Shown here in pieces: positions 53,111-53,593 of a DNA stretch of 64,000 bases. Source of the stretch: Eledone cirrhosa (taxonomy: Eukaryota); the NCBI GenBank assembly GCA_964016885.1, contig OZ024742.1, forward strand, positions 53,816,001-53,880,000, given 5' to 3'. The notes under the pieces are model-generated. The model was not told where the DNA came from. It searched no databases and saw only the letters and a list, made by a program, of their open reading frames with translations. The position numbers were made by a program, and so were the translations under genes. Within the stretch, counting starts at the first letter, position 1; each line of letters starts with the position of its first letter.

Positions 53111-53593
53111 GAAAAGAATGAAATGAAATTTTATTTCTCACTCTTAGTACGGCTGATACTTAAATATAAGTATGTATACGTACATACATATATGTATACA
53201 GACGTACAGTAGTATGTATATATATATACATACATGCACACATATATATATATGTACGTATGGGTTTACCGAACATTTATTATAATGTTCGGTTCGTTTG
53301 TAAACAAACAGCCCGAATTAAACCGTACAGTGTTCGGCAACCATCGTCGCCCTTTTTGTTCAACACTGACAAAGGAACGATGAACTAGTTTCAAGCTTAT
53401 TAGCTATCGTCAGCATCGTATACCTTCCTGTCAGCTGATTGAACGTTTGAAAGTATCACGTACTTTCCTTATGCATCTTAACGGCTGAGCAGCCTAATTT
53501 GCATATCGAGTGAGTTAGTCGGCCGGGCGTACCGAAAACGATAAATGGAAAAGAATGAAATATTTAATTCTTTTCCATTTATCGTTTTCGGTA
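53111..53593 (-). mobile_element. Solo family A monomer (437 bp plus 14 bp terminal redundancy plus a short inversion) in (TA)n
   Basis: 'gaaaagaatgaaat' at both 53111 and 53548; 53567-53593 is inverted; homologous to 830-1914. Confidence 0.9.
53377..53419 (-). ncRNA. Family A hammerhead, intact, with covarying stem I
   Basis: ACGAUG-CUGACGA-U AGCU aaua AGCU U-GAAA-CUAG-UU-CAUCGU. Confidence 0.9.

Follow-up and report, generated by a model that had tools for sequence, protein, structure and literature searches.

A candidate non-LTR retrozyme with Penelope-style inverted ends in the genome of Eledone cirrhosa

How does a short repeat that encodes no protein come to lie inside a (TA)n microsatellite, far from the array of its relatives, and which template and enzyme brought it there? 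The question is raised by a repeat, family A, in the stretch of the Eledone cirrhosa genome analyzed here (the window: 64,000 nucleotides of contig OZ024742.1, assembly GCA_964016885.1, positions 53,816,001 to 53,880,000 of the forward strand). Family A occupies two loci in the window, an array at 843-2059 and a dispersed copy at 53111-53593. Searches of the 64-kb window with a profile HMM and a covariance model found no further copies, and the covariance model gave a weak match to an unrelated hammerhead pair at 34214/34141 (E 0.04 and 0.46). With a probability of about 0.7, we read family A as a non-LTR (metazoan) retrozyme whose dispersed copy was retroposed in trans by a Penelope-like element (PLE) targeting (TA)n.

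The retrozyme class, the more-than-unit mechanism and the PLE link are already published, and a single copy of a known class alone alters little, while family A may be undescribed as a family. Open in the field are the enzyme that spreads animal retrozymes and the choice between circles and uncleaved multimers as its template. PLEs have been called a strong candidate for this role (PMC7229834), and the mobilization mechanism remains to be elucidated according to the available text of 10.64898/2026.07.22.740005. Among titles and abstract openings in the open literature, we found no junction analysis of animal retrozyme insertions. The useful addition from this locus is a fold-back with a tail, by which the PLE hypothesis becomes testable through counting junctions.

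Layout of the dispersed copy

On its left, the copy adjoins a (TA)n tract of 59 repeats (52994-53110), the putative target, which meets the RNA 3′ side of the copy. There follow a non-coding 437-bp unit on the minus strand (53111-53547; longest stop-free frame 72 amino acids), a 14-bp repeat of the unit start, also minus (53548-53561), a 32-bp inverted arm on the plus strand (53562-53593) and a compound (TA)n(TG)n microsatellite (53592-53621), with four further such compounds within the window. The redundancy is exact, 53111-53124 being identical to 53548-53561 at a spacing of 437, and the 14-bp repeat ends within a hairpin formed by unit positions 7-25. The inverted arm is the reverse complement of 53530-53561, joined to it with no loop and matching at 31 of 32 positions. 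It extends 18 nt past the start phase of the direct copy, in the manner of a tail, and its final TA is common with the target. This fold-back is the most informative feature of the dispersed copy. The preliminary description had given the insert as one 437-bp unit plus a 14-bp repeat of its start within (TA)n; the unit, the repeat and the (TA)n on both sides stand, yet the 451 nt so described end at 53561 and the fold-back beyond had been missed.

Between the dispersed copy and the array units, 8.6-11.2% of positions carry substitutions, and the flanks of the copy gave no match to those of the array in any of four comparisons. Shared flanks had been named as an observation that would speak against mobility; they were looked for and are absent, and we reject segmental duplication as the origin of the copy. 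Insertion of a cleaved linear monomer is likewise rejected, the predicted hammerhead cut lying at unit position 273 and the ends of the copy at unit positions 1 and 14. (TA)n tracts adjoin three of the four family A ends and make up 3.6% of the window. The earlier recognition of a dispersed 437-bp family A copy, far from the array, was correct, and its claim of mobility gains support, as RNA-borne movement, from the distinct flanks, the microsatellite site and the Penelope-style inverted ends.

Hammerhead motif, RNA fold and class

The copy carries a type I hammerhead on the minus strand (53377-53419). CUGANGA, GAAA, UH and three helices with helix I open are found at 53419-53377 and in array unit 2. 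In the dispersed copy the motif consists of a 6-bp stem I, CUGACGA, a stem II of AGCU/AGCU with an AAUA loop and a U·U at its base, GAAA, the triplet GUU and a 2-bp stem III with palindromic ACUAGU; the cut is predicted between 53383 and 53382. Across three copies, all 60 helix cells are paired. Stem I reads ACGAUG (53419-53414) and CAUCGU (53382-53377) on the minus strand, against ACGUUG/CAGCGU in both array units containing the whole stem, as had been reported. The difference is a single pair, 53416:53380, U·G in the array and A-U in the dispersed copy, with both partners altered and pairing kept. The core and stem II had also been called unchanged, which holds for stem II, CUGACGA and GAAA in comparison with array unit 2 but not for N17, where the triplet is GUU (53385-53383) versus GUA in the array. 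A GUU triplet cleaves more slowly than GUA. The array is not uniform in its hammerheads, with one intact (core at 1505), one carrying CUAA (1068) and one cut off at 1914, and the CUGA motif reads CUAA in two of three array copies. In hammerheads, G5A is an inactivating change.

Canonical metazoan type I hammerheads have a helix I of 6 bp, a helix II of 4 bp and a helix III of 1-2 bp with a palindromic loop (PMC4209133), and the geometry of family A agrees with this description. A helix III this short and palindromic implies cleavage as a dimer (PMC4209133), and, judging from its sequence, the family A hammerhead probably works best as a dimer. It resembles axolotl HHR_Amex2 / Rtz_353 (PMC7229834) in the 2-bp helix III, the U·U mismatch at the helix II base and a weak monomer with a better dimer, in family A by prediction. 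This likeness is one of description rather than sequence: unit lengths differ, and loop III is a tetraloop in the axolotl motif and 2 nt (UA) closing A-U and C-G pairs in family A. Only one of nine predicted Xenopus retrozyme dimers cleaved (10.64898/2026.07.22.740005), so prediction of a hammerhead is insufficient to establish self-cleavage. Rfam hammerhead models gave no match at the gathering score anywhere in the window, and a further Rfam search gave only a chance snoRNA match (E 0.11). Folded in isolation, the hammerhead is no more stable than shuffled sequences (z -0.7 to -1.3), and its minimum-energy structure mispairs stem III.

The stem I difference had been taken as covariation and as a sign of selection on the RNA fold. 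As stand-alone proof it is rejected: one of 20 pairs has both partners altered, a count matched in 163 of 500 shuffles with the three sequences at hand, and one both-side change anywhere in the unit has P 0.14-0.15. The broader claim fares better when the whole unit is considered. We took the 24 positions at which the dispersed copy differs from all array units covering them, left out 57 of 442 columns as ambiguously aligned, folded one copy as a circle and placed the changes randomly 20,000 times. Four pairs are broken versus 10.8 expected in the structure from array unit 2 (P 0.0014), and two versus 6.8 in that from the dispersed copy (P 0.0043). Two pairs have changed on both sides (P ~0.01), the stem I pair and 53351:53336 in a hairpin that the preliminary description had not recorded (53336-53351, minus strand; columns 197:212 and 200:209), where A-U in the array is G-C in the dispersed copy; this hairpin also has a one-side change with pairing kept. 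For broken pairs, the opposite strand gives P 0.71 and 0.07, although the both-side count is high there in one direction (P 0.005). Selection on the family A fold is supported by this whole-unit test, which compares two lineages on a predicted structure and does not amount to an R-scape analysis.

Predicted circular folds on the hammerhead strand are also strongly self-paired. In all three monomers they reach z -7.3 to -9.8, with none of 60 shuffles as stable, and the 437-bp dispersed unit gives z -7.75, again with none of 60. Circles of this strand are 10-30 kcal/mol more stable than those of the opposite strand, which beat their shuffles less strongly, and part of the stability is due to a self-complementary TA-rich tract.

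These properties place family A with the metazoan non-LTR retrozymes described in PMC7229834: tandem non-coding units within 150-450 bp, GC below 50% (37% in family A), one type I hammerhead per unit, a self-paired predicted circle that leaves the hammerhead exposed, and PLEs in the same genome. The comparison is by description and not by sequence, and family A differs in its 437 nt, which exceed the 170-400 nt reported for circles, and in ends that are inverted arms in (TA)n rather than visible target duplications. Monomers, dimers and multimers, co-occurrence with PLEs and proposed use of their enzyme are likewise features of the retrozymes in 10.64898/2026.07.22.740005. That study argues from co-occurrence and homology to PLE pseudo-LTRs (pLTRs) that animal retrozymes are non-autonomous PLE derivatives, with no junction analysis in its available text, whereas the evidence from family A is junction layout, and a search of the 64 kb gave no homology to a pLTR. 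Two consecutive complete hammerheads, its mark of an active locus, do not occur in the array, there being one intact motif in the array and one in the dispersed copy, which concerns these two loci and not the family.

Template and enzyme of the insertion

The direct part of the array (843-1914, minus) comprises ~2.5 units that are 3-6.5% apart and starts at (TA)n adjoining a Penelope-like endonuclease fragment (74-814). It is closed by an inverted partial unit (1926-2059, plus; unit positions ~277-411), which begins approximately where the direct part stops and overlaps its end by ~7 nt, an inversion resembling twin priming. An 11-nt filler at 1915-1925 precedes the inverted piece and repeats its start, which suggests an aborted template switch. 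At the right end of the array, the nearest (TA)n is 164 nt off. Measured from cleavage site to cleavage site, the array monomers are 428 and 437 nt, and the array is not unit-phased. Four substitutions, including the CUAA core change, and one indel are each common to two units, and the groupings conflict: the inverted piece goes once with unit 1 and once with unit 2, while unit 3 goes with unit 2 at two substitutions and with unit 1 at the indel. Transcription of a mixed multimer in the genome, or gene conversion at a later time, fits these conflicting changes better than one circle, and the array, on its sequence, favors a multimer as template.

For the dispersed copy, reverse transcription slightly more than once round a circular or multimeric template had been proposed, a model already in print (PMC4209133, PMC7229834). 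The insert is compatible with it, but one insertion, beside an array with shifted phase and conflicting units, is not diagnostic. Synthesis across the predicted cut at unit position 273 means that the template was intact there. A monomeric circular RNA, copied once round until the enzyme meets the start of its own cDNA and stalls after displacing 14 nt, is rather less likely than not. It agrees with a length of one unit plus 14 nt, with synthesis past the hammerhead site and with redundant ends that are identical even at two sites where array units differ from both; retrozyme circles occur in coral, mussel and axolotl (PMC7229834), and the more-than-unit model has been proposed (PMC4209133). 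The insertion is a single one, however, and random truncation would place an end within 20 nt of unit length in ~9% of cases (40/437, our estimate). The stop also coincides with a hairpin that every unit contains, and this accounts for the end point with no need of a circle. The lack of unit phase and the two monomer lengths in the array count against a circle as well, as do its conflicting groupings, one circle being expected to yield identical units, though later gene conversion could blur this.

In the mechanism that we favor, a source locus of a sister subfamily rather than the nearby array would have been transcribed, as the 24 fixed differences that keep pairing suggest. A PLE GIY-YIG endonuclease would then have nicked the (TA)n(TG)n tract, the 3′ end priming cDNA at unit position 1; the target is seen directly and the enzyme is a presumption. 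Reverse transcription would have run for 451 nt through the hammerhead site on a religated circle or an uncleaved multimer and stopped inside the hairpin at unit positions 7-25. The 32-nt inverted arm may have arisen when the new strand snapped back on itself or when the other target strand served as primer at position 420, and would have been joined to the target via the common TA.

Several observations link such an insertion to PLEs. Insertions of endonuclease-bearing PLEs show a (TA)n bias and carry a 5′ copy in inverted orientation and a tail on one side (PMC8557442), and the palindromes at their inverted junctions have been ascribed to self-priming (PMC3846280). Both strands are nicked and extended by a purified PLE protein, which begins synthesis at two internal sites that set the tail, can dispense with hammerhead cleavage and prefers unprocessed RNA in vitro (PMC11167929). 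Like these elements (PMC3846280, PMC8557442, PMC11167929), the dispersed copy combines a partial tandem with inversion of its 5′ copy, a palindrome at the inversion and a one-sided tail, lies in a (TA)n or AT-rich target, and has ends distant from the hammerhead cut site. It differs from them in lacking a reading frame, in having a hammerhead that is canonical and not minimal, and in its tail of 18 nt, shorter than the 30-40 nt in the literature and the ~80 nt of local PLE-type insertions. Also against a PLE origin are the small basis of two insertions and two lineages, the right end of the array away from (TA)n, and the presence of other non-LTR reverse transcriptases in the window. No sequence link between family A and PLE ends or frames was found within the 64-kb window (best E 0.079).

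A PLE with a GIY-YIG domain is present in the same genome, as an insertion at 46612-50786 (minus) that carries RT-like and GIY-YIG frames. It has (TA)n at each end and inverted arms of 1.6 kb, one of them with an 81-nt tail, a layout also seen in the dispersed copy. In a wide structural search, 47919-48500 folds as GIY-YIG (I-TevI, Z 9.0, rmsd 2.3, 88 aligned), and its frame family has an invariant or near-invariant CxC...C, Y-x-G and C-x-x-C pattern. Related endonuclease fragments lie at 74-814, 2690-3046 and 31640-32218, and all PLE frames are broken. We take the protein to be of Neptune/Nematis type from its linker motif, and presume that the frame at 48467-49009, which has no Pfam match, is RT-like. 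None of 338 candidates among longer homologues named the PLE protein, Pfam matched neither the protein nor 10 of its 150 listed relatives, and a PDB sequence profile and Foldseek gave no significant match (T4 EndoII at the top, E 0.37).

As comparators we used nine local inverted repeats outside family A from a self-comparison of the window, leaving out an inverted SINE pair and an outer arm pair at ~40996-41345. Four of the nine adjoin (TA)n within 1 nt (chance 0.018 per end), which speaks for a PLE origin of the family A insertion, and five do not, which speaks against it; among the four, three have a tail of 81-83 nt before the other tract. These three, at 4021-4358, 36272-36667 and 46612-50786, are unrelated in sequence, each with (TA)n at one arm and the extension before the other (TA)n, and the extensions are roughly double the 30-40 bp reported for PLE tails. 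Near-perfect fold-backs also occur within RT-like frames at 26785-27363 and 43387-43473. Since their arm ends are internal to the frames, snap-back is favored over fixed start sites for these two.

Fold-backs can come from hairpin-capped breaks or chimeric reads. Movement of the copy as DNA, by an excised satellite circle or microsatellite break repair, with the fold-back as a repair product or assembly artefact, would suit a unit that holds its own TA-rich tract and junctions that show only TA microhomology. The strand-specific keeping of G·U pairs nevertheless points to RNA, the arm carries a mismatch and most comparator arms are 85-98% identical, unlike a read artefact, and the layout recurs in unrelated elements with near-constant tails, so that we judge this explanation quite improbable.

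Family A could instead be the pseudo-LTR (solo terminal repeat) of an autonomous PLE outside the window, and the dispersed copy a short 5′-truncated PLE insertion. The ends of the copy are laid out as in PLE insertions, solo and inverted pLTR structures are known (PMC3846280), and Xenopus retrozymes are homologous to pLTRs in 24 of the 57 families matching Repbase elements, 21 of 22 of those being PLEs (10.64898/2026.07.22.740005). In family A, however, 437-bp units follow one another head to tail without an intervening reading frame, the hammerhead is canonical (6 bp/4 bp) rather than of the minimal type of metazoan pLTRs (PMC4209133), and fold-preserving change extends across the whole unit. 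We consider a pLTR origin unlikely.

Another reverse transcriptase in the window belongs to an L1/Tx1-like element at 16202-19663, an open 1153-codon frame with endonuclease, RT and zinc-binding domains, GC ~53%, beside (TATC)n, which is probably young. Mobilization of the retrozyme by such a LINE, with inversion via twin priming, would draw on this open frame and on the twin-priming geometry of the array inversion. Family A lacks a poly(A) tail, a common 3′ end and a visible target duplication, the ends of the L1/Tx1-like element adjoin (TATC)n and not (TA)n, and the arm of the dispersed copy duplicates the direct part rather than continuing it, making a LINE highly improbable as the vehicle.

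The PLE reading can be sharpened by combining it with a circular template. The dispersed copy would then be a junction-level record of a PLE enzyme at work on a retrozyme circle: priming at (TA)n, a full turn, a stall after displacement of 14 nt, and a renewed start, 18 nt behind the initial one, from which the inverted arm is made. As a complete account this is somewhat improbable. If true and repeated, it would mean that PLE proteins use circular RNA to move canonical-hammerhead retrozymes in trans. Start sites would be family-specific, pLTR homology would not be required, and the origin of PLE inverted ends and tails would be explained.

Other repeats in the window

The window is AT-rich, microsatellite-dense and of animal type, with many retroelement fragments, and hammerheads occur in it outside family A. 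A short palindromic insertion at 33941-34372, with arms 97.6% identical and ends on (TA)n, represents a second hammerhead family, with a hammerhead in each arm (34219, plus; 34136, minus) and palindromic GUAC in stem III. At 26438-26612, a 175-bp element between two (TA)n tracts has a type I hammerhead with a long stem II (26515, plus) and AUAUAU in stem III, and a similar motif lies at 50978 (minus). A dispersed 268-bp repeat (3131-3397 and 55436-55697, 91% identical) contains CUGAUGA...GAAA on the minus strand at 3325, which failed a hammerhead stem scan.

The frame at 33297-33803 presumably corresponds to the restriction-like endonuclease end of an R2/R4-type element, by a motif that we take as characteristic; Pfam gave no match for it. 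A 295-bp direct repeat at 29957-30843, 99.7% identical and 592 bp apart, is a recent duplication or an assembly artefact. A SINE-like repeat of ~190 bp has at least 10 copies, mostly 80-94% identical, at 9432-9628, 10696-10887, 13144-13343, 24718-24918, 28711-28930, 34639-34996, 35418-35610, 36781-36999, 38702-38794 and 40164-40370.
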